A stretch of 64,000 nt of DNA from assembly GCA_035482045.1 (NCBI GenBank), contig DATHRD010000015.1, positions 14,597-78,596 of the forward strand. The letters are read 5' to 3'. The stretch comes from Thermoanaerobaculia bacterium (GTDB lineage: Bacteria > Acidobacteriota > Thermoanaerobaculia > Gp7-AA8). The position numbers and the translations under genes are program-made. The notes under the pieces are model-generated. The model searched no databases and was not told the origin of the DNA. It saw only the letters and a program-made list of their open reading frames with translations. How positions within the stretch are numbered: position 1 is the first letter of the stretch; every line of letters starts with the position of its first letter. Shown here one piece after another: positions 2,924 through 55,423 of this stretch.

Positions 2924-4411
2924 CTACCCTACCAACTTCATCAGCCGTAGCTTTGTGATCTTCATCTGCTCCTCGGCGGCGAGGCGCAGTTCGTCTTCAG
3001 GCGAATTCTCCAGCCGTTGCCAGGCCATGGCCAGCATCTCATCGGCGCTGCGGCCGGTGGCGCAGACGATGTAGATGTATCCGAAGCGCGCCTCGTACTC
3101 GCGATTCGCCGCTGCCAGTGCGTCCATGCTCTCGCTCGACGCCGAGGCGGTTCCCGACTGCTCCTGCTGTTCCCATCGTGAACCGGACCCGTCGCCGATG
3201 CGCGGATGTGCGGCGAAGGCTTCGCGCCAGTCGTCAGGCTTCAACGCGTGCCAGATCTGCTCGGCCTGGTGAATGAGATCGCTCCAGGCCGGGAACGGAC
3301 GCGCCCCGGTCATCCGCCGCACCCACTCGGTTGAGCCGCAGCAGTTCCTGAGCTGCATGGCCGCGAGCTCGTCCGTCAACGTATTGACGTACCTGACCAC
3401 AGCTTCGCCGCGGCCTTCCTCGGTGGCCACGCCGTGCACGCGCAGCCGGCTGACGCCGCCGTCAGGGAAGACATTGAGCCGCAGGTGCGTCACCGGCCCG
3501 TTCTGTGCCAGCTCGTCGATGAAGATGTGACGGGTATGGCCTTGCAGCTTCGTGCGCGGCAGTACCTCGAACCACTCAGCGTCGATGAGCGCCGCTCCCG
3601 CGGCGGCAAACGCGCGGGTGCCGTCGATCGAGCAGGTGTCTGGGTAGTTGCCTTTGAAATGGTTGGTGTCGATCTCGACACGCCGTATCAGCCCCTCGGC
3701 GGCGAGCTGCACGATGACCCAGTCGTTCCCCGGACCGCGCCGCCGCTTCGTCTCCCACCCATCGCTCATGTTGACGGCGCGGTCCGGCATGATCAAGTTG
3801 TGCTTCGGTCCGAAGAACATGTCGCTGCAGGCCAGCACGTCGCCGCCGTGCTCCGCCGCCGCGAGGTCGGTCTCGATGGACAGCCCGCCTTCACGCCGCC
3901 ACTCGGGGACGACCTGGCCGTGCACACGGAGCCGCGCTACGCCACCGTCGGGATAAATGTGGAGCCGCAGATGGGTGAAGGCGTACGGCGTGTCGACCGC
4001 AAAAGGGTTCTCGCTGTCACCTTTCAGTTCGGACTTCGGAAGGATCTCGATCCAGTTCGCCGCCAGAAGCGCCTCAACGTCGCTTTCTGGCGGAGTTGCA
4101 CACGCTTCGATGGAGCAATGCGACGGATAGTTGCCGCGAAAGAAAGCCGTATCGACGACGACCCCGCGAATCACACCGCGAAGGCCGAGGCGGATGATGG
4201 CGAAGTCATGGCCGGGAGTGCGCTTGCGGCGGCTTTCCCATCCATCCATCCACTTTCCGCGGTCTGTGTACTCGTATTCCTTCCACACCGGCTTCGCGGG
4301 GCGAAGCAGGTTCTCCTTCTCCGCGAAGTAATCGTCGGTGGCATAGAGCACCGATCCGCCGAGGCGCTCGGAGGCTAGGTCCAGCAGCTCTTGAAAATCG
4401 GTTTTGCTCAT
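2924..4411 (-). CDS. bifunctional allantoicase (two allantoicase repeats) fused to a C-terminal OHCU decarboxylase domain
   Basis: Two allantoicase repeats (KWMDGWESRRKR ... DGWETKRRRGPGNDW). C-terminal AFAAHPRIGD...FGYIYIVCATGRSADEML is OHCU decarboxylase-like. Start taken at MSKTDF (4411). The in-frame upstream ATG at 4477 lies inside a palindromic repeat. Confidence 0.75.
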   Translation of the reverse strand: MSKTDFQELLDLASERLGGSVLYATDDYFAEKENLLRPAKPVWKEYEYTDRGKWMDGWESRRKRTPGHDFAIIRLGLRGVIRGVVVDTAFFRGNYPSHCSIEACATPPESDVEALLAANWIEILPKSELKGDSENPFAVDTPYAFTHLRLHIYPDGGVARLRVHGQVVPEWRREGGLSIETDLAAAEHGGDVLACSDMFFGPKHNLIMPDRAVNMSDGWETKRRRGPGNDWVIVQLAAEGLIRRVEIDTNHFKGNYPDTCSIDGTRAFAAAGAALIDAEWFEVLPRTKLQGHTRHIFIDELAQNGPVTHLRLNVFPDGGVSRLRVHGVATEEGRGEAVVRYVNTLTDELAAMQLRNCCGSTEWVRRMTGARPFPAWSDLIHQAEQIWHALKPDDWREAFAAHPRIGDGSGSRWEQQEQSGTASASSESMDALAAANREYEARFGYIYIVCATGRSADEMLAMAWQRLENSPEDELRLAAEEQMKITKLRLMKLVG

Positions 4412-4515
4412 GAACGAACCGAGACGAATGTTGAATGTTGAACGTTGAGTGTTAAATGTTGAATGAAGGTCAGCCACTCAACATTCACCACTGAACATTC
4501 AACATTCAACATTCG
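4405..4515. repeat. imperfect long inverted repeat built from tandem AATGTTG heptamers, AT-rich relative to the rest of the window
   Basis: acgaatgttgaatgttgaacgttgagtgttaaatgttgaatg ... cactcaacattcaccactgaacattcaacattcaacattcgt. Overlaps the 3-prime end of allantoinase and the 5-prime region of the allantoicase fusion gene. Confidence 0.8.
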
Positions 4516-5878
4516 TTCTCCGAACCCACTCCCCAATCGCATTGCCAAGATGCCGCCCATCCTCCCACACCTTGTGGCCACGGACATACGTCGCTCGGAC
4601 GACGCCGGTGAGCGTCTCGCCGGCATACGGCGTGACCTTGTGCCGATGTTGAACGAGCTCCTCTCGAACGACGAAATGCGCATCCGGATCGAAGACGACG
4701 ATGTCGGCGTCGAAGCCGGCGGCCAGCTTTCCTTTGCGGTCGCCGAGTCCTGCCAGCGTTGCCGGGCCGGTCGTCATCAGATGGACAATCTGCTCGAACG
4801 CAATGCCGCGCTTCTTCGCCTCGGTCCAGACAATCGGCAGGCCGAACTGCAGCGAGGCGATTCCGCCCCAGGCCCGCGCGATGTCGACTGCGTCCATCCG
4901 TTTCAGCTCCGGTGTACACGGGGAGTGATCGCTGACGACGGCGGTGAAGAGTCCCTCGCGGAGGCCGCGCCACAGCTCCTCGCGGTTGGCGTGACCGCGG
5001 ATCGGCGGGGCGCACTTGAACTCCGTCGCTCCGTCCGGCACCTGCTCGGCGTCGAAGTAGAGATAATGCGGCGTGGTCTCGGCAGTCAGCGGCCCGTGCG
5101 CGTCGCGGGCGCGGCGAAGCGCATCGAGCCCGTTCGCCGAGGAGAGGTGGACGATGTGGGCATGCGTCCCAGTCTTCCGCGCCAGCGCGTAGACGAGTGC
5201 GATCGCTTCATCCTCGGCTTCGGCGGGACGTGTGGCGAGGTAGCTCGCATACGAACGATCGTGGCCCGCCGGCGCGTGGATGTGCTCCGGCAATTCCGCG
5301 TGGACCAGCAGAGGCGCGCCGGTGTCCCGCAACGCGTTCAATGCCTCTTCCAGTCCGCGAGCATCGAGATGGCCAAACTCCGGCACTCCCGAGTCGACGA
5401 GAAAGCATTTGAAGCCGCACGCTCCGGCTTCGAGCATGGCCCGAAGCTGTCCCGAGTTTCCCGGCACCGCGCCGCCCCACAACGCCACGTCGACGCGACA
5501 CTTCCCATCGAGAGCGCGCACCTTCGTCTCCAGCGCCGCAACGGATGTCGTCGGAGGGATCGAGTTCAAGGGCATATCGACGACCGTGGTCACGCCACCG
5601 GCCGCCGCCGCCCGTGTGGCCGTCTCGAACCCTTCCCATTCCGTCCGCCCCGGCTCGTTGACGTGTACGTGCGAGTCCACGATGCCGGGCATGAGGGTGA
5701 GACCGCCGTAGTCTTCGAACGGGGCTCCCGCGGGGACGTCGTCGAATTCGCTGACGCGCTCGATCACTTGCCCGTTGACGTGAATCGTCGACGGCCGGAT
5801 ACCATGCGGCGTGACGACGCTACGGCTGCGGAGGATCACGTTTCGGATGATAGCGGAGGCAATGTATGTCTCGAACAC
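4499..5878 (-). CDS. allB: allantoinase
   Basis: GIVDSHVHVNEPGRTEWEGFETATRAAAAGGVTTVVDMPLNSIPPTT and WGGAVPGN motifs of cyclic-amidohydrolase allantoinase. Confidence 0.85.
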   Translation of the reverse strand: MFETYIASAIIRNVILRSRSVVTPHGIRPSTIHVNGQVIERVSEFDDVPAGAPFEDYGGLTLMPGIVDSHVHVNEPGRTEWEGFETATRAAAAGGVTTVVDMPLNSIPPTTSVAALETKVRALDGKCRVDVALWGGAVPGNSGQLRAMLEAGACGFKCFLVDSGVPEFGHLDARGLEEALNALRDTGAPLLVHAELPEHIHAPAGHDRSYASYLATRPAEAEDEAIALVYALARKTGTHAHIVHLSSANGLDALRRARDAHGPLTAETTPHYLYFDAEQVPDGATEFKCAPPIRGHANREELWRGLREGLFTAVVSDHSPCTPELKRMDAVDIARAWGGIASLQFGLPIVWTEAKKRGIAFEQIVHLMTTGPATLAGLGDRKGKLAAGFDADIVVFDPDAHFVVREELVQHRHKVTPYAGETLTGVVRATYVRGHKVWEDGRHLGNAIGEWVRRTNVEC

Positions 5879-5912
5879 GCGCGCGGTGGGTGTGTTGACT
5901 TGTCATCCACTC

Positions 5913-6154
5913 TGTCATCCTGAGCCTGCCGGAGCCGCTGAGCGAGCGCAGCGCGAGTGCGGCGGAGGACGGCGAAGGATCTCCAGATGCGCTGCTTGGG
6001 GCAGAAGCACAGATGGGGTTTTGTCGTTGATCTTCCTCACAAAAACCACAGTTTCGCTACTGCCCCAGGCGCTGCCACTGGAGATCCTTCGCCGTCCTCC
6101 GCCGCTCTTCGCTCGCTACGCTCGCTCAGCGGCTGCGGCAGTCTCAGGATGACA
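5913..6154. mobile_element. MITE-like non-autonomous element, copy 1: about 74-bp near-perfect terminal inverted repeats with TGTCATCCTGAG termini
   Basis: Left arm tgtcatcctgagcctgccggagccgctgagcgagcgcagcgcgagtgcggcggaggacggcgaaggatctccag. Right arm ctggagatccttcgccgtcctccgccgctcttcgctcgctacgctcgctcagcggctgcggcagtctcaggatgaca. Central region of about 90 bp. A partial direct copy of the terminus (tgtcatcc) lies 12 bp upstream. Confidence 0.6.
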
Positions 6155-6194
6155 AATTGCCAATAGGGTTTCTTCACGGAGACCTGCGTTTCCT

Positions 6195-10694: not shown

Positions 10695-12164
10695 CTACAC
10701 CCGCGCGAAGCGACGTTCCGCCGCCTCTTCGAACACCTCGTACCAGAACTTCGCCATGATGTTCTCTGCGAGTTGCAGCCTGTAGTCGGCGGAGCCCCGC
10801 ACGTCGCTGATCGGCTTGATCTCGTCGCGGGCGATGCGGCCGGCGTGCTCGAAGGTATCAAGGGTGGCCGTCTTGCCGGCCAGGAAGGCTTCCGTGTGCG
10901 GGAGGCGGATGACGGTAGGGGCGACGCCGCCGTAGGCGATGATGGCGTGGTCGATCCGATCGCCGCTGATTGCCAATCGAATGGCGGCGGTGAAGGCGGA
11001 GATGTCGAGATCCTTGCGTCGCGAGACCTTGTAGAGCTTGAGCGTGTCGCGGACGATGGGGATGCGAACGCTGGTGATGATCTCGTCGGGATGGAGATCG
11101 AACTTCCGGTATCCGAGGTAGAAGCGGTCGATCGGAACGGTGCGAGTGCCGCCGTTCAGCGCGAGGGTGGCGCCGGCGACGAAGAGATAAGGCAACGTGT
11201 CGGCGATTGGAGAGCCGTTGGCGATGTTGCCGACCAGCGTTCCGGCGTTCTTGATCTGAGGTGAGCCGAACACGGCCAGGATGCCCGCCAGCTCGGGGAT
11301 GCGATCGGCGATGAACGTCTCGAAGTCGGCGAGCGTCGCATTCGCGCCGGCGACGATCGCGCCGTCTTCTTCGCGCAACTCGTTGAGCGATGCGATCTTC
11401 GACAGTGACAGCATCGCCGGCGCGGCGAGGTTCCGCTTGTTGACCCAGACGCCGACGTCGGTCCCCCCCTGCACGATCGTGCATCCGGGATGGCCGCGTT
11501 TGAAGGCGATTGCCTCGTCGAGCGTGGCCAGCGCGCAGAAGGAGCCGACCTCCACGGAATCGCTTGCATCCGGAAGATCGGGATAGCGGTCGCGCATCTT
11601 GCTGATCGGCGCGCCGTCGATCGCCAGCGCGGCCTTGATGATCGGCTCGTAGCCGGTGCAGCGGCAGAGGTTTCCGGTCAGCCCGTCACGTACCTGTTTT
11701 TCATCGACCCGGTCACAGCGCTCGAACATTCCGGCCATGGCCATGACGAAGCCGGGCGTGCAGTAGCCGCACTGCGCGCCGTGGCAACGAACCATGGCCT
11801 CCTGAACAGGATGGAGAACGTTTTTACGCGGAGACGCGGAGACGCGGAGGGAGTCCTCTTTTCTCCGCGTCTCCGCGCCTCCGCGTGAAACGGTTTTCGT
11901 TTCGCTCAATCCTTCCACCGTGACGATCGATGATCCATCGAGCTGCGCGAGCGAAAGGATGCAGGCGTTGACCGGACGATAGTCGGCATCGGCCGTGCGC
12001 CGGGTCAATACCGTGCAGGCGCCGCAATCCCCTTCCTCGCAGACGATCTTCGTCCCAGTGGCAGCGACATCCTGTCGAAGATAGTTCGCGAGGGTCTCGA
12101 AGGCGACATCGCCGGCGATGCGATGTTCACGGCCGTTGATGTGGATGAGGATGTGGTCGCGCAC
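10695..12164 (-). CDS. xdhA: xanthine dehydrogenase small subunit (2Fe-2S and FAD-binding)
   Basis: EEGDCGACTV and CGYCTPGFVM ferredoxin motifs followed by an FAD-binding domain. Contains an unusual in-frame palindromic segment (separate feature). Confidence 0.85.
   Translation of the reverse strand: MRDHILIHINGREHRIAGDVAFETLANYLRQDVAATGTKIVCEEGDCGACTVLTRRTADADYRPVNACILSLAQLDGSSIVTVEGLSETKTVSRGGAETRRKEDSLRVSASPRKNVLHPVQEAMVRCHGAQCGYCTPGFVMAMAGMFERCDRVDEKQVRDGLTGNLCRCTGYEPIIKAALAIDGAPISKMRDRYPDLPDASDSVEVGSFCALATLDEAIAFKRGHPGCTIVQGGTDVGVWVNKRNLAAPAMLSLSKIASLNELREEDGAIVAGANATLADFETFIADRIPELAGILAVFGSPQIKNAGTLVGNIANGSPIADTLPYLFVAGATLALNGGTRTVPIDRFYLGYRKFDLHPDEIITSVRIPIVRDTLKLYKVSRRKDLDISAFTAAIRLAISGDRIDHAIIAYGGVAPTVIRLPHTEAFLAGKTATLDTFEHAGRIARDEIKPISDVRGSADYRLQLAENIMAKFWYEVFEEAAERRFARV
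11826..11888. repeat. near-perfect 24-bp-stem hairpin embedded in frame in the xdhA interdomain linker
   Basis: cgcggagacgcggagacgcggaggga gtcctctttt ctccgcgtctccgcgcctccgcg. Encodes the low-complexity segment VSRGGAETRRKEDSLRVSASPRKN. Confidence 0.8.
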
Positions 12165-18879: not shown

Positions 18880-19076
18880 CGGTTGCGGGGTCGCGCGGCA
18901 GCGTGATTGCGCGGTCTCGCGGATTCGGTTGCTGAGTCGCTGGGTTACTGAGTTGCTGAGTCTACGGAAGCTGCCCAGCAACCCAGCAACCCCAGCAACC
19001 CAGCAACCCCAGCAATCCAGCAACTCAGCAACTCAGCAACCCAGCACCCCGAGACCGCGCAGCCGCGAGACCGCGT
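18880..19076. repeat. long imperfect inverted repeat made of GTTGCTGAG / CCCAGCAAC short tandem units, flanked by GCGGTCTCGCGG and CGCGAGACCGCG
   Basis: Left arm gcgcggtctcgcggattcggttgctgagtcgctgggttactgagttgctgagtc. Right arm ccagcaacccagcaaccccagcaacccagcaaccccagcaatccagcaactcagcaactcagcaacccagcaccccgagaccgcgcagccgcgagaccgcg. Confidence 0.8.
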
Positions 19077-22589: not shown

Positions 22590-22734
22590 GTGGTTGCTGA
22601 GTTGCAAGGTTGCTGGGTCTCTCGGCAGCGCGGTCTCGCAGTAGCGCGGCGGCCACGAGCAGAGACCGCGAGACTTCGAAACCGCGAGACTTCGAGACCC
22701 AGCAACCCAGCAACCCGCATCACAGCAACCCGCA
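22590..22734. repeat. inverted repeat element combining GTTGCTG / CAGCAAC units with GCGGTCTCG / CGAGACCGC cores
   Basis: gttgctgagttgcaaggttgctgggtctc...gcggtctcg ... cgagaccgcgagacttcgaaaccgcgagacttcgagacccagcaacccagcaacccgcatcacagcaacccgcatcacag. Confidence 0.8.
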
Positions 22735-37099: not shown

Positions 37100-37240
37100 T
37101 TACCTGATGTTGGGGGGTGGGGAGTGGGGGTGGGGAGTGGGAGAGGGAGTCGCGGTGGGAAGCTACTGCTCTGAAATCCAACTCCCAACTGCCACTCCCA
37201 CCCCCCACTCCCCACTCCCCACCCCCCACCCCGCGATATC
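37100..37240. repeat. G-rich / C-rich long palindrome of the GGGGTGGGGAGTGG family between mglA-like and eda-like genes
   Basis: ggggggtggggagtgggggtggggagtgggagagggag ... ctcccaactgccactcccaccccccactccccactccccaccccccacccc. Confidence 0.8.
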
Positions 37241-50249: not shown

Positions 50250-50406
50250 TGTCATCCTGGGGCGGCGGCGCCCCGGAGGGGCAAAGCGCGCCGAAGGACC
50301 CCCAACGCGCTTGCATCGACGGATAACCACCACCCGCCCTGGTTACCAGGCTGGGGGTCGTTCGTCGTCCTGCACCCCTCCGGGGTTTCGGCGACTCAGG
50401 ATGACA
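50250..50406. mobile_element. MITE-like element, copy 2, with the same TGTCATCCTG...CAGGATGACA termini as copy 1
   Basis: tgtcatcctggggcggcggcgccccggaggggcaaagcgcg ... ccggggtttcggcgactcaggatgaca. Fills the convergent gap between the histidine kinase and the Spy-like gene. Confidence 0.6.
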
Positions 50407-52325: not shown

Positions 52326-53627
52326 ATGCGCCCTCTTTTTGCAGCCATGGCTCTTATCGCCGCGGGTCTCAGCCCCGCTCTCGCGCAGCCTCTTGTCTGT
52401 CCCCCTGTCGCCTCCGTCGCCGGCCGTGCGTGCGACACGTTTCACTATCACGTGCAGATGTTCAAGCCGGATACCCGCGAGTTCGTCGAGCTTTACGGGG
52501 TCAACCAGTTCGCCTCGATGGCGGCTTGTGAACGTGCCCGCGATGTGCAGTTCAAACGCAACATGGCGGTTGTCGAGTTCTTTCGTGCGCAGAGGAGAGA
52601 CTGGTGGCAGGCCGACAAATTCGGGCAGTGCCATTGCGACATGACCGTCGAACGCGCCAGCCCGAACGCGTTGACGGACGCCGCGCGGGTCCAGCAGATC
52701 CACGACGCGGAAGAGGTTCGGCAACGCGTCCGGGAGCGCCTGCTCGATGCCAGAGTCCCGGCAGACGCAGAGCTGATCCGCGATCTGGCCCCGCCGGTCA
52801 GCACCACACCGCTCATCGGCGGTCCCAAGCTGGTGTCGATGCCGCCTCCGGTTGCGGCCACGACAGTCTCGGGCTCGCCCGACGATCTTCGGATCACGAA
52901 GGCGGTCGATACGACCCCAGCATCGACGACATCGCTCGATCTGCCTCTCGTCGATGTCCCGTTGCCGGGCATCGCGCCGGCCATGGAAACCGCTCCCGCC
53001 ACTACGCCGACGCAAGTGCCGCCGCCCTCCGTGCCGCAGACGTCTGCCCCGGCTCCAGTCAGCAACGCCCCGGCGCAAGCGGTTCCAGCACCGCAGCCCG
53101 CGCAACCTTCGCCAGCCCCCGTCTCCACCGAGCCGTTGGCCATCGTCGACGATCCCGATCTCCCGGCGCCTGAAGATGTCGCAGACGCCTTCGTCAGCTA
53201 TGAGTCGCAGCGTATCCAGAACGTGTTGAAGGTCAGCGGCAGCATCGGCGACGAATCGATCAAGGCTCAGGTGCTCGATGCCTGTACGCAGCGGATCCAA
53301 CTCCTTTCGAACCTTCGCTCGATCATCGTCGGGTCCGGTGCGAAGAGTCGTCTGGTCGCGGCCACGAATGTCGCGAGAAAAGAGAGCGACCGCCTGGCCG
53401 TGGTGGCAAAACTGTTCGGGAGTGACGTGCCGCCGCACTGGGCGCCCAAGGATGCGTCCGATGTGATCTTCGACCCGGGTGTCACGGACCCGGAGCGAGT
53501 GCTCCGCGACAGCTCGTCGTCCGATCAACAGAAACGCCACGCTCTCTACGTTCTGCTGGCGACGACATCGCCGACCGAGCAGCAGCAGATGTGGCTAAAC
53601 TCCGTGATCGAGGCGCTGCTGAAATGA
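52326..53627 (+). CDS. secreted hypothetical protein with Pro/Thr/Ala-rich linker
   Basis: Signal peptide MRPLFAAMALIAAGLSPALAQ. Low-complexity PAPQPAQPSPAP segment. No family recognised. Confidence 0.5.
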   Translation: MRPLFAAMALIAAGLSPALAQPLVCPPVASVAGRACDTFHYHVQMFKPDTREFVELYGVNQFASMAACERARDVQFKRNMAVVEFFRAQRRDWWQADKFGQCHCDMTVERASPNALTDAARVQQIHDAEEVRQRVRERLLDARVPADAELIRDLAPPVSTTPLIGGPKLVSMPPPVAATTVSGSPDDLRITKAVDTTPASTTSLDLPLVDVPLPGIAPAMETAPATTPTQVPPPSVPQTSAPAPVSNAPAQAVPAPQPAQPSPAPVSTEPLAIVDDPDLPAPEDVADAFVSYESQRIQNVLKVSGSIGDESIKAQVLDACTQRIQLLSNLRSIIVGSGAKSRLVAATNVARKESDRLAVVAKLFGSDVPPHWAPKDASDVIFDPGVTDPERVLRDSSSSDQQKRHALYVLLATTSPTEQQQMWLNSVIEALLK

Positions 53628-55423
53628 AACCAGAAACCAGAAACCAAGAACCAGAAACCAGAAACCAGAAACCAGCAAGCGTGCGGCGATCACGATTCTC
53701 ATTTCCGCCTTCTGGTTTCTGGTTTCTGGTTTCTGGTTTCTGCCTTCTGGTTTCTGCCTCCTGCCTTTTCGCGCAGGCGCCGCCAGCTTCGCCCGTTCCG
53801 GCGCAGCCCGCAGGCCCTCCTTCTCAGCCCGCCGCGTCCGCGGCCATGCCTCCGAGCGAAGAGTTCGTGAAGGCGGTTTACTTCGGCGAAAAGTTCGCCG
53901 AGATGAAGGATTACGCAAACGCCTATCAGCAGTTCGCGAAGGCGGACGCGCTGCAGCCCGATGTGCCAGGTGTGCTGTACAACATGGGGGTTCTCCTCGC
54001 CCGCGCCGGCCGCTTCTCGGAGGCACAGGCCAAGGTCGATCGCTACAACCAGCTCTTTCCGGCCGGTGCCGAGAAACCGCTCGTCGCCAAACTGCAACTC
54101 GATCTGGAGTTCGAGCGGGAGCTTCAAAAGAAACGGCAGACGGATGAGGAGTACACCGCCATCTTCACGAGGGGCCGGTTCCTTTACGGCAAGGGTGATC
54201 TTTCAGCCGCGCTCAAGCTGTTCCAGGACGCCGAGCAACAGCGCCCTACCGATCCGGCCGCCGTTTTCAACCAGGGCGTTGTCTATGAAAAGCTCGGGGA
54301 TCTGAACAGAGCGGCGGAGCGCTTTCACCGCTACGAAGAACTGGAGCCCGACGCGAACGCGAAGTCGTCGGCGGATCAGCGCCTGCTCGGTATCGAGAGC
54401 GAGATGTCGGACATGAAGACGAAGATTGTCTGCCCCTTCTGCGGATGGCGGCTGCCGATCGGGTCGATCTGGTGCCCGCACTGCTGGCACGGTCCGTATC
54501 TCACGTCACAATCGCACTGGAATTCGAGGCCGTGTACCGATGGAGCAACGGCGACGCGCGCGACGTATTACGCTGACGGTCGTTTCGCGAAAAACGATTC
54601 ACTGCCTTGTCTCTTCAACGGCATGATGCTCGACGCGCTCCGCTATACGCCTGACCGCCAGCGGCGAGTCCAGGAGACGCGCAAGGCCGAGGGGTGGACG
54701 TACAGCGGAGACCTCATCCAGGGGTGGCATGACCGGCAGGGCAATGAGATTCGTTACGTCCAGGGGGCCGACTACCTCGAAAAGATCGTTTCCCCCAGCG
54801 GCGGAGACCTGCTGCTGTTCAACGCTCACAAAGCGCCTGATGCCGGTATCTGGCTGCTCGATCGGGAGGATGTCGTCATCGACGGTCAGAAGTACACGTC
54901 GCGCTACACCTTCGACGCCCAGAATCGCGTCGCCGAGCAGCAGGTCGTTTATCAGAACGCCGCCGGCTGCAATGACGTCATCACGATGACGGCACTCGCC
55001 ACGTACACGAACGATCTTCTGGCGGGGTTGCAGATCCGCGGAGGTTATACGGGCACTGTCGTTCAGGGCTCGCCGCGCGTCGATTGGGAGGCCAACGTCG
55101 CCTTCTCCTATGACGTCAACGCGCGAGAGACGAAGGAAGAGCTGGCCGTGAGCTCGATGACGAAGACCTACACGGAAAAGCCCTACGGCATGATGCGTCA
55201 GGAAGTGGCCGCGCTCTATCCGGAAATGCGCGTCCGCAAACCGATCGAGAGGATCCTCTATCTCGGCGATCGCTGCGGTGTCTCCGGCACGACAGTCCTC
55301 GGCAATCCCGTCGACCTCCGGCCGTTCTATGCCCTCACTCCGAATCTGGCCGTGGCCATCGCCAGCGGCGTCACCCGTGCGACGGTGAGTTTCACGTATC
55401 CGGACTCGTATAGGGTTCGATAG
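53624..55423 (+). CDS. secreted TPR-containing protein; signal peptide encoded by a (GAAACCA)n / (TGGTTTC)n inverted repeat
   Basis: MKPETRNQEPETRNQKP...FWFLVSGFCLLVSASCLFAQA then TPR-like units. ATGA overlap with the upstream stop. Confidence 0.55.
   Translation: MKPETRNQEPETRNQKPASVRRSRFSFPPSGFWFLVSGFCLLVSASCLFAQAPPASPVPAQPAGPPSQPAASAAMPPSEEFVKAVYFGEKFAEMKDYANAYQQFAKADALQPDVPGVLYNMGVLLARAGRFSEAQAKVDRYNQLFPAGAEKPLVAKLQLDLEFERELQKKRQTDEEYTAIFTRGRFLYGKGDLSAALKLFQDAEQQRPTDPAAVFNQGVVYEKLGDLNRAAERFHRYEELEPDANAKSSADQRLLGIESEMSDMKTKIVCPFCGWRLPIGSIWCPHCWHGPYLTSQSHWNSRPCTDGATATRATYYADGRFAKNDSLPCLFNGMMLDALRYTPDRQRRVQETRKAEGWTYSGDLIQGWHDRQGNEIRYVQGADYLEKIVSPSGGDLLLFNAHKAPDAGIWLLDREDVVIDGQKYTSRYTFDAQNRVAEQQVVYQNAAGCNDVITMTALATYTNDLLAGLQIRGGYTGTVVQGSPRVDWEANVAFSYDVNARETKEELAVSSMTKTYTEKPYGMMRQEVAALYPEMRVRKPIERILYLGDRCGVSGTTVLGNPVDLRPFYALTPNLAVAIASGVTRATVSFTYPDSYRVR
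53625..53765. repeat. inverted repeat composed of tandem GAAACCA heptamers (left arm) and TGGTTTC heptamers (right arm)
   Basis: gaaaccagaaaccagaaaccaagaaccagaaaccagaaaccagaaacc ... ttctggtttctggtttctggtttctgccttctggtttctg. Confidence 0.85.

Follow-up and report, generated by a model that had tools for sequence, protein, structure and literature searches.

Gene-less inverted hairpin doublets in a Thermoanaerobaculia genome as probable derivatives of Ssn-family GIY-YIG nuclease elements

The stretch of DNA analysed here, referred to as the window, comprises 64,000 nucleotides of a Thermoanaerobaculia bacterium (Acidobacteriota; assembly GCA_035482045.1, contig DATHRD010000015.1, positions 14,597 to 78,596) and contains two palindromic intergenic inserts, copy 1 (242 nt) and copy 2 (157 nt), which are the subject of this study. 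Copy 1 lay in a 316-nt spacer between the stop of xdhB (6195), which encodes the molybdenum cofactor (MoCo) subunit of xanthine dehydrogenase, and the start of an allantoinase-type amidohydrolase gene (5878), both on the minus strand. Copy 2 lay in a 173-nt spacer between the stop of a histidine kinase gene (50236) and the stop of a convergent LTXXQ/Spy-like gene (50410). The original prediction, which gave this gene context correctly, described the inserts as two copies of a non-autonomous MITE-like element (a miniature transposable element with inverted repeats) mobilised in trans, or alternatively as two copies of a gene for a structured small RNA.

Both inserts began with TGTCATCCTG(A/G)G and ended with CTCAGGATGACA, and each formed a single long imperfect palindrome. 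The window contained exactly four occurrences of the terminus pattern TGTCATCCTGRG, arranged in two pairs that face inward, against a mean of 0.4 in shuffled windows, and none of 100 shuffles reached four, which confirmed that the two inserts with their shared termini were real. Comparison of the folds with those of shuffled sequences gave one hairpin of -190.5 kcal/mol for copy 1 (z -18.7) and a fold of -95.2 kcal/mol for copy 2 (z -6.05). The near-perfect terminal inverted repeats of about 74 bp that had been proposed proved to be ungapped arms of 67 nt with 79-81% complementarity, and in copy 1 nearly all of the element was paired, with arms of about 105 nt that were interrupted by mismatches and by an indel of 3 nt. 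The supposed shared core CCCCGGAGGGG was found in copy 2 only, whereas the box common to all four arms was CGAAGGAYCYCC. Outside two boxes, copy 2 was unrelated to copy 1 and had no relatives among the copy-1-type loci; it is a more decayed doublet of a different subfamily and not a second copy of the same insert.

The insert next to xdhB was found to belong to a dispersed family. The 21-mer GGAGGACGGCGAAGGATCTCC from the arm of copy 1 had 64 matches in 55 stretches of the genome collection, all of them in about 10 metagenome-assembled genomes (MAGs) of Thermoanaerobaculia. In one fragmented MAG the exact matches were spread over about 28 contigs, a complete 6.6-Mb chromosome had five of them, and the window itself contained two elements in 64 kb. 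Most of these copies were complete inverted doublets of 143-317 nt. Copies at unrelated loci were 80-94% identical to copy 1 over its full length, and the similarity stopped sharply at 5912/5913 on one side and at 6154-6161 on the other. Apart from an unrelated hairpin at 18927-19050, the rest of the window had no match to the family loci.

Full-length relatives of about 400-865 nt carried the same termini as the window inserts, and those from Thermoanaerobaculia also carried the same arms. A complete Thermoanaerobaculia unit consisted of an arm, a leader of about 200 nt, an ssn gene for a protein of 82-105 aa, and an inverted arm. At locus L170, window-type termini and arms enclosed 865 nt with a 105-aa open reading frame (ORF) that contained a GIY-YIG domain (Pfam PF01541, E ~5e-15), and two further GIY-YIG genes adjoined elements in L141 and L148. 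A protein search returned 597 homologues, with the source names ‘GIY-YIG nuclease family protein’ or ‘putative endonuclease’, many of them on very short contigs. In all five further homologues looked up at the DNA level, the gene was located between inverted GTCAT-hairpin units. The arms closely matched those of copy 1 in P0031/L177, between the methylmalonyl-CoA mutase gene and ybeY, and resembled them in P0025/L187, between cmk and rpsA; P0108/L197 from Anaerolineaceae carried the covarying variant GTCATTTCGA..GAAATC, P0111/L198 from Binataceae was a compact unit of about 395 nt between gyrB and gyrA with termini exactly as in the window, and the fifth was P0033/L200. Pfam GIY-YIG was the only domain of these 82-105-aa proteins; no NCBIfam match was obtained, and the matches in PDB were weak ones to UPF0213, with no informative protein name. 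A gene-bearing partner with matching termini did turn up, but every gene found between such termini encoded a GIY-YIG nuclease and never a transposase, for which the original prediction had proposed to look. Inside the 865-nt element of L170 (1430-1620), a second, unrelated palindromic repeat, GGGGAGAAGGTGCCGAAGGCGGATGAGGGGG with its complement, was also observed, which suggests a nested insertion of another repeat family.

Alignment with MAFFT arranged members of the family into a nested deletion series, L177 > L153 > L175 > L151 > L152/window. The gene was present in L177 (~650 nt), the codons KGWARKQKIELIKSMNP were retained in L153 (317 nt), L175 (290 nt) and L151 (281 nt) were intermediates, and only ATCAACGAC was left in L152 (244 nt) and in copy 1 (242 nt); the codons KGW(A/T)RK(R/Q)KIELI were still held by the intermediates of the series. 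In copy 1, the deletion junction was located between 6031 and 6032, all that was left of the nuclease gene's 3' end was the stretch GTCGTTGAT (6023-6031), and the ancestral gene would have lain on the minus strand of the window. Copy 1 is an arm-leader-ssn-arm unit that has lost the leader and almost the whole gene. The same junction, TGTGAGGAAG joined to ATCAACGACAAA(A/C)C as read on the minus strand, or TGTGAGGAAG joined to ATCAACGACAAACC, recurred outside the window at 10 loci, which belonged to three MAG species, and an all-against-all BLAST revealed no homology of at least 500 nt shared among those loci. The recurrence of one exact junction implied that the gene-less form had spread as a unit, since a deletion that arose once and is now present at many places is the signature of a spreading non-autonomous element.

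Nucleases of this type and their hairpin motifs were first described in 2025. In Neisseria meningitidis, the 94-aa protein SsnA has GIY-YIG as its single domain; it binds to just one strand of the hairpin repeat NTS (CGTCATTCCCGCGMAVGCGGGAATCYRG), and to that strand only when the DNA is single-stranded (ssDNA), cleaves upstream of the motif, reduces transformation by DNA with flanking NTS, and does not bind RNA (Chenal et al., Nat Commun 2025, PMC11893778). About half of the dRS3 copies are NTS, and Ssn homologues across phyla are flanked by Ssn-related motifs (SRMs), with motifs on both sides in 42% of cases; site- and strand-specific cleavage of ssDNA was shown for the Neisseria and Wolbachia enzymes only. 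The layout of motif, gene and motif was called ‘identical to IS’ (insertion sequences) and was compared with REP/RAYT by those authors, who left the mobility of the unit as an explicit open question (PMC11893778). A tblastn search with a Thermoanaerobaculia protein against an N. gonorrhoeae record (L286, PLSDB NZ_CP119140.1, labelled as a plasmid but of chromosome size, 2.17 Mb) found a 94-aa ORF amid nine NTS repeats at E 5e-12, compared with the homology criterion of E < 1e-10 used in that paper. Pairwise BLASTP between the protein and this gonococcal SsnA showed 40% identity over 89 aa (E 4e-21). Other literature searches gave unrelated primer matches only for the terminus and box sequences and the pseudo-peptide VILSEAKDL, mostly fungal mitochondria for GIY-YIG mobile elements, and nothing related for COG2827/UPF0213/YhbQ.

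The resemblance to the Ssn system extended to the motif. All four window arms began with TGTCAT, in agreement with the conserved 5' (H)GTCAT head of the SRM, which is followed by a hairpin and ATC, and the unit paralleled the NTS sequence CGTCAT-TCCCGCG..GCGGGAAT-C. As in the published system, the motif was present in inverted orientation on both sides of a single-domain GIY-YIG gene of about 90-105 aa in the relatives L170, L177, L187, L197, L198 and L200, and many additional gene-less copies were intergenic. In contrast to the published motifs, the helix contained a tandem G-A step, its tip was often replaced by long nested hairpins, the arms were about 105 nt instead of 20-50 nt, and the prevailing Thermoanaerobaculia form was a whole-element palindrome with gene remnants. 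The nuclease activity of the Thermoanaerobaculia protein on its own motif is putative, as judged from sequence.

To define the unit, the viral-contig collection was scanned with TGTCATCCTGRG..CGAAGGAYC, which gave at least 120 stretches, and the unit read from these loci consisted of (C/T)TGTCATCCTGAG, a variable and often hairpin-forming insert, and CGAAGGA(T/C)C; its short form is TGTCATCCTGAGCGAAGCGAAGGATCTCC. The arm pattern specific to copy 2 had no match in this collection. The units on viral contigs were mostly single, and among the matches listed only 11 of about 240 termini had an inverted partner within 500 nt. Covariation was counted over all 1.88 Mb of fetched loci DNA with the pattern GTCA-X4-GA...GA-rc(X4). 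X4 was matched by its reverse complement for TCCT (351 of 392), TTCT (43 of 55), TCCC (26 of 43), TTCC (16 of 26), TGCT (12 of 16) and TTTC (10 of 12), whereas the controls gave 0-1. The six covarying variants indicated that the unit is a hairpin under selection, in which a short helix follows GTCA and leads over a tandem G-A step to a variable tip. The left arm of copy 1 ran from TGTCAT through ATCCT, one strand of the helix, to GA and a nested insert rich in GC, and on through a second GA and AGGAT to CTCC; the ATCCT/AGGAT helix was predicted in the DNA fold of the single arm and covaried across the family. The very widespread variant TGTCATCCTGAG..CGAAGGATC is missed by the published SRM search pattern.

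Inverted hairpin doublets as the apparent replicating unit, an intergenic location without target duplications, mosaics with short modules, and one small protein gene flanked by the units are also features of the REP/BIME/REPIN-RAYT systems, and REPIN-like REP doublets mobilised by a RAYT protein (HUH Y1), or PATE-like derivatives of IS200/IS605, are a rival explanation with the same organisation. However, the flanked gene encoded a GIY-YIG nicking nuclease and not a Y1_Tnp transposase of the HUH type with covalent intermediates, and no RAYT-type gene was seen between the units in any locus that was read, with no systematic search for RAYT made. The conserved head TGTCAT also differed from that of REP sequences, which is GTAG or GTGG. 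These differences make the REPIN or PATE explanation highly improbable.

Filled and empty sites were compared among the MAG loci. Between the same convergent genes, L165 had an element where L125 had eight bases, and the element of L152 was missing in L175 and L164; the L152 group was too rearranged to define the insertion boundaries, and the L165/L125 pair was cleaner. In this pair, the inserted DNA extended on either side by a further module of about 35 nt (GAGGTTGTGAAAAAA..CAATT), which copy 1 has on one side only. Target-site duplications, which the original prediction had suggested checking, were absent: among 42 elements no direct flank repeat of at least 5 nt was found at four assumed end offsets, and the L165/L125 pair also had none. 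The flanks were more often inverted-complementary, with GGCAATT before and AATTGCC after the element, or CAC and GTG.

These results bear on whether the inserts are classical MITEs, that is, deletion derivatives of an IS whose mobilisation depends on a DDE transposase with the TGTCATCCTGAG terminal inverted repeats as its recognition sites. The inserts are of small size, have no coding capacity and end in inverted repeats, they occur in multiple dispersed copies with filled and empty sites, and the tandem partial termini (TGTCATCC N3-5 TGTCATCC) look like a series of binding sites for a transposase. They also share with bacterial MITEs (Correia/NEMIS, RUP and Nezha) the amplification of deletion derivatives of a gene-bearing parent, presence/absence polymorphism, and possible long hairpins in transcripts. 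Nevertheless, without target-site duplications the element lacks a defining feature of classical MITEs; moreover, the parent encodes a GIY-YIG nuclease instead of a DDE transposase, and the terminus is part of a covarying and mostly single hairpin unit. A classical MITE is thus very unlikely. Of the MITE-like reading in the original prediction, the gene-less derivative status stood for copy 1, on account of the gene-bearing relatives with the same termini, the deletion series, the recurrent junction and the filled/empty sites, while the partner proved to be a Ssn nuclease of about 100 aa and not a transposase in the known sense.

The DNA outside the termini was modular as well. A module of about 35-45 nt, (TGTCATC)CTGAGAGGTTGTGAAAAAA-N12-GGGCAATT, preceded many elements, sometimes in tandem, and was found at 6155-6194 in the window, at 1561-1600 and 1280-1317 in L165, and in the flanks of L157, L129, L169 and L158. 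The flank AATTGCCAATAGGGTTTCTTCACGGAGACC of copy 1 resembled AATTGCCC..TTTTTTCACAACCTC, the outer module of roughly 35 nt that lies beside many copies at other loci, and the BLAST matches of several copies reached 6161-6177. Another module, TAGTGTCGTGTCAAGATTGAAATCGGAGGTTAAGC.CCTCTCAATTCAC, abutted TGTCATCC at unrelated loci (flanks of L125, L137, L153, L122 and L133) and started with TGTCA like the main element. Tandem TGTCATCC N3-5 TGTCATCC arrangements, as at the left end of copy 1, were present in L135, L138, L140, L141, L166 and L170. Because outer modules headed by TGTCATC lie beside the elements, TGTCATCCTGAG recurs at module junctions, as dRS3 does at the junctions of the variable intergenic modules in the Neisseria dRS3/NIME mosaics. 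The two systems differ in lineage and sequence, and the modules found here include recognisable pieces of a nuclease gene.

Both window sites were empty or differently occupied in relatives, where the original prediction had advised looking. Copy 2 was absent 3' of the orthologous kinase gene in four related genomes (79-88% amino-acid identity), of which two had no spacer at all, one had a different long hairpin, and one had unrelated sequence. The xdhB-allantoinase arrangement was kept in about 20 metagenome relatives, with a spacer of 0 to 1293 nt that was either empty or taken up by hairpins of other kinds, by minisatellites, or by GTCATCC doublets of a different sort (100 and 145 nt). The minisatellites that filled this spacer in L206 (1090-1450) and L207 (1160-1470) had periods of 21 nt (GACTCCACGAGTCCATGAATT) and about 24 nt (GAACCAGAAACCTGGTCCCC..).

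The inserts could instead be immobile, domesticated host repeats, kept as transcript-end or mRNA-stability hairpins or as Ssn sites that control recombination or ssDNA uptake, as proposed for NTS. Copy 1 is situated after xdhB and copy 2 occupies the gap between two convergent genes, both fold with extreme stability, many unrelated long hairpins occupy similar positions in the window and in relatives, including orthologous sites, and a host-level effect on transformation is known in Neisseria (PMC11893778). On the other hand, no T-tract followed either hairpin, and no intrinsic terminator site (GC-rich hairpin with T-tract) coincided with copy 1 or copy 2; the elements were not conserved at orthologous sites; and one deletion derivative was present at many loci of several species with 91-94% identity in unalignable intergenic surroundings, which indicates spread over local retention. 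As the main explanation, domestication is unlikely, whereas as a secondary role it is compatible with derivation from Ssn elements.

The variable sites also argued against a structured small RNA gene in two copies. In favour of such an RNA, the RNA folds are very stable and the short helix covaries. However, no Rfam family reached the gathering threshold in the window, where the sub-threshold hits were generic long-hairpin miRNA models only; the inserts were nearly symmetric on both strands and shared the boxes only; they were absent or replaced at orthologous loci; copy 1 was a deleted protein-coding element; and SsnA does not bind RNA (PMC11893778). The small RNA alternative is almost certainly wrong.

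Taken together, the sharp boundaries and dispersal of the family, the gene-bearing relatives, the deletion series, the spread of one deletion derivative, the filled/empty sites, the covariation of the helix and the homology to SsnA make it probable that the two inserts consist of inverted, gene-less pairs of a hairpin repeat, an SRM variant that serves as the recognition motif of Ssn-family GIY-YIG ssDNA nucleases. The window inserts are accordingly non-autonomous derivatives of Ssn elements, which are MITE-like in their logic and are not classical MITEs. By analogy with the Neisseria SsnA, each arm would fold locally when the DNA is single-stranded, and a Ssn protein encoded elsewhere in the genome would bind the arm and nick a few nucleotides 5' of TGTCAT. 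The position of the nick would be the boundary of the element on either strand, and copying or recombination initiated by the nick could spread or maintain the doublets without target-site duplication. Mobilisation in trans by Ssn, as we infer it by this analogy, would replace the transposase of the original prediction. The inserted hairpin, with a stem of about 100 bp, probably also acts as a transcript-end structure, which would be a side effect and not the reason for its existence.

Several observations weigh against this derivation from Ssn elements. The link of copy 2 to an ssn element was one 56-nt match, its best, with 84% identity to the left arm of L148 beside the nuclease gene, and the conserved helix was lost in the arms of copy 2. 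The single arms of copy 1 folded no better than shuffles (z +1.5 and +0.75). With the arms of copy 1 at shuffle level and the helix of copy 2 lost, the dominant structure in the window was the whole-element hairpin and not the local motif; for the local hairpin of the window copies, the covariation spoke in its favour and the single-arm thermodynamics did not. The published SRM pattern, HGTCWYN(0-2)YYVSBRHN(0-5)WNVSBRGN(0-2)RNCYNB, run as a regular expression, had no matches in the window; it was passed by NTS but neither by the short consensus unit nor by the left arm of either window copy, so the window motif is a variant outside the published SRM definition. The filled/empty comparisons showed extra outer modules and rearrangements with no clean cut at TGTCAT. 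No ssn gene was found in the window by tblastn, and a trans-acting nuclease in the organism is therefore assumed. On each strand, an inverted doublet presents a single motif that can be cleaved, and the nicks of GIY-YIG enzymes are simple ones; we know of no transposition chemistry that follows from this.

A further step, which we put forward tentatively and hold to be somewhat less probable than its opposite, is that SRM-ssn-SRM units are autonomous mobile elements of a new class with a GIY-YIG ssDNA nickase of about 100 aa as their sole protein, and that the window inserts are derivatives mobilised by them in trans. If this is true, the deletion series and the single junction shared by 11 loci, of which 10 belong to three MAG species and one is in the window, would provide comparative evidence for the first time for the mobility of Ssn elements and for a transposition route that needs no DDE, HUH or serine/tyrosine recombinase. 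The present results add a new lineage and a motif variant to this kind of element. Acidobacteriota is a phylum not named in the main text of PMC11893778, in which ‘MITE’, ‘non-autonomous’, ‘Acidobacter’ and ‘Bacteroid’ do not occur. The full, partly deleted and fully deleted forms, the multiplied derivative and the filled/empty sites form a tractable natural data set on the mobility of Ssn elements. In addition, the doublets break metagenome assemblies and create spurious ORFs, and recognising them aids annotation. The features of the window inserts are given in Table 1.

Table 1. Positions of the two inserts and their parts in the window
Feature	Position	Strand	Basis or remark
Duplicate of part of the terminus, TTGTCATCC, lying 4 nt upstream of copy 1's true left end	5900-5908	+	Read directly
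Copy 1, 242-nt palindromic gene-less derivative of a Ssn (GIY-YIG) element	5913-6154		Termini, fold, family alignment
Copy 1 left arm, SRM-like unit	5913-5984	+	Boxes, predicted single-arm DNA fold, family covariation
Terminus TGTCATCCTGRG	5913-5924	+	
Inner box CGAAGGAYCYCC	5973-5984		Common to all four arms
Copy 1 inner part, inverted-repeat extension (CCAG..GGGGCAG / CTGCCCC..CTGG) and deletion junction	5985-6079		MAFFT series
Copy 1 right arm, opposite-strand version of the left-arm unit	6080-6154	-	Boxes, fold
Inner box CGAAGGAYCYCC	6080-6091		Common to all four arms
Terminus TGTCATCCTGRG	6143-6154	-	
Outer flank module AATTGCCAATAGGGTTTCTTCACGGAGACC, one side only	6155-6194		Comparison of 84 element ends
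Copy 2, 157-nt inverted doublet of degenerate SRM-like units	50250-50406		Termini, fold
Copy 2 left unit TGTCATCCTGGG..CCCCGGAGGGG..CGAAGGACCCCCA	50250-50304	+	Conserved GA mutated to GG
Terminus TGTCATCCTGRG	50250-50261	+	
Inner box CGAAGGAYCYCC	50292-50303		Common to all four arms
Copy 2 right unit TGTCATCCTGAG..CCCCGGAGGGG..CGAACGACCCCCA	50352-50406	-	3' strand of the helix mutated, ACGA for AGGA
Inner box CGAAGGAYCYCC	50353-50364		Common to all four arms
Terminus TGTCATCCTGRG	50395-50406	-	

Additional arrangements were observed at other loci. In L123 (3600-4800, Thermoanaerobaculia SMAG_U12840), a small secreted cupin-like gene (3980-4393) was located between a 60-nt mini-doublet and a full 245-nt doublet, with a 27-nt duplication of the start of the adjoining kinase gene on both sides, and the segment with the cupin-like gene was 94% identical beside a truncated element in another species (L174); this arrangement looks like gene capture or recombination between elements. 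At the orthologous loci L124 (2026-2232) and L142 (1192-1424) of two MAG species, the flanks were 82% identical and the doublets belonged to different subfamilies, which indicates either a hotspot where insertion has taken place repeatedly or a rapid turnover at the site itself.

Other intergenic hairpins of the window, with arms made of tandem short repeats, were located at 53626-53763, 4424-4516, 11814-11898, 18894-19075, 22601-22715, 37111-37232 and 1060-1139. Their arm repeats, for example (GAAACCA)n/(TGGTTTC)n, (GAATGTT)n, (GCGGAGAC)n, (GGTTGCTGA)n and (GGGGAGTG)n, were unrelated to the TGTCATCC elements, and the hairpin at 18927-19050 gave a 77% match to positions 116-234 of L175.

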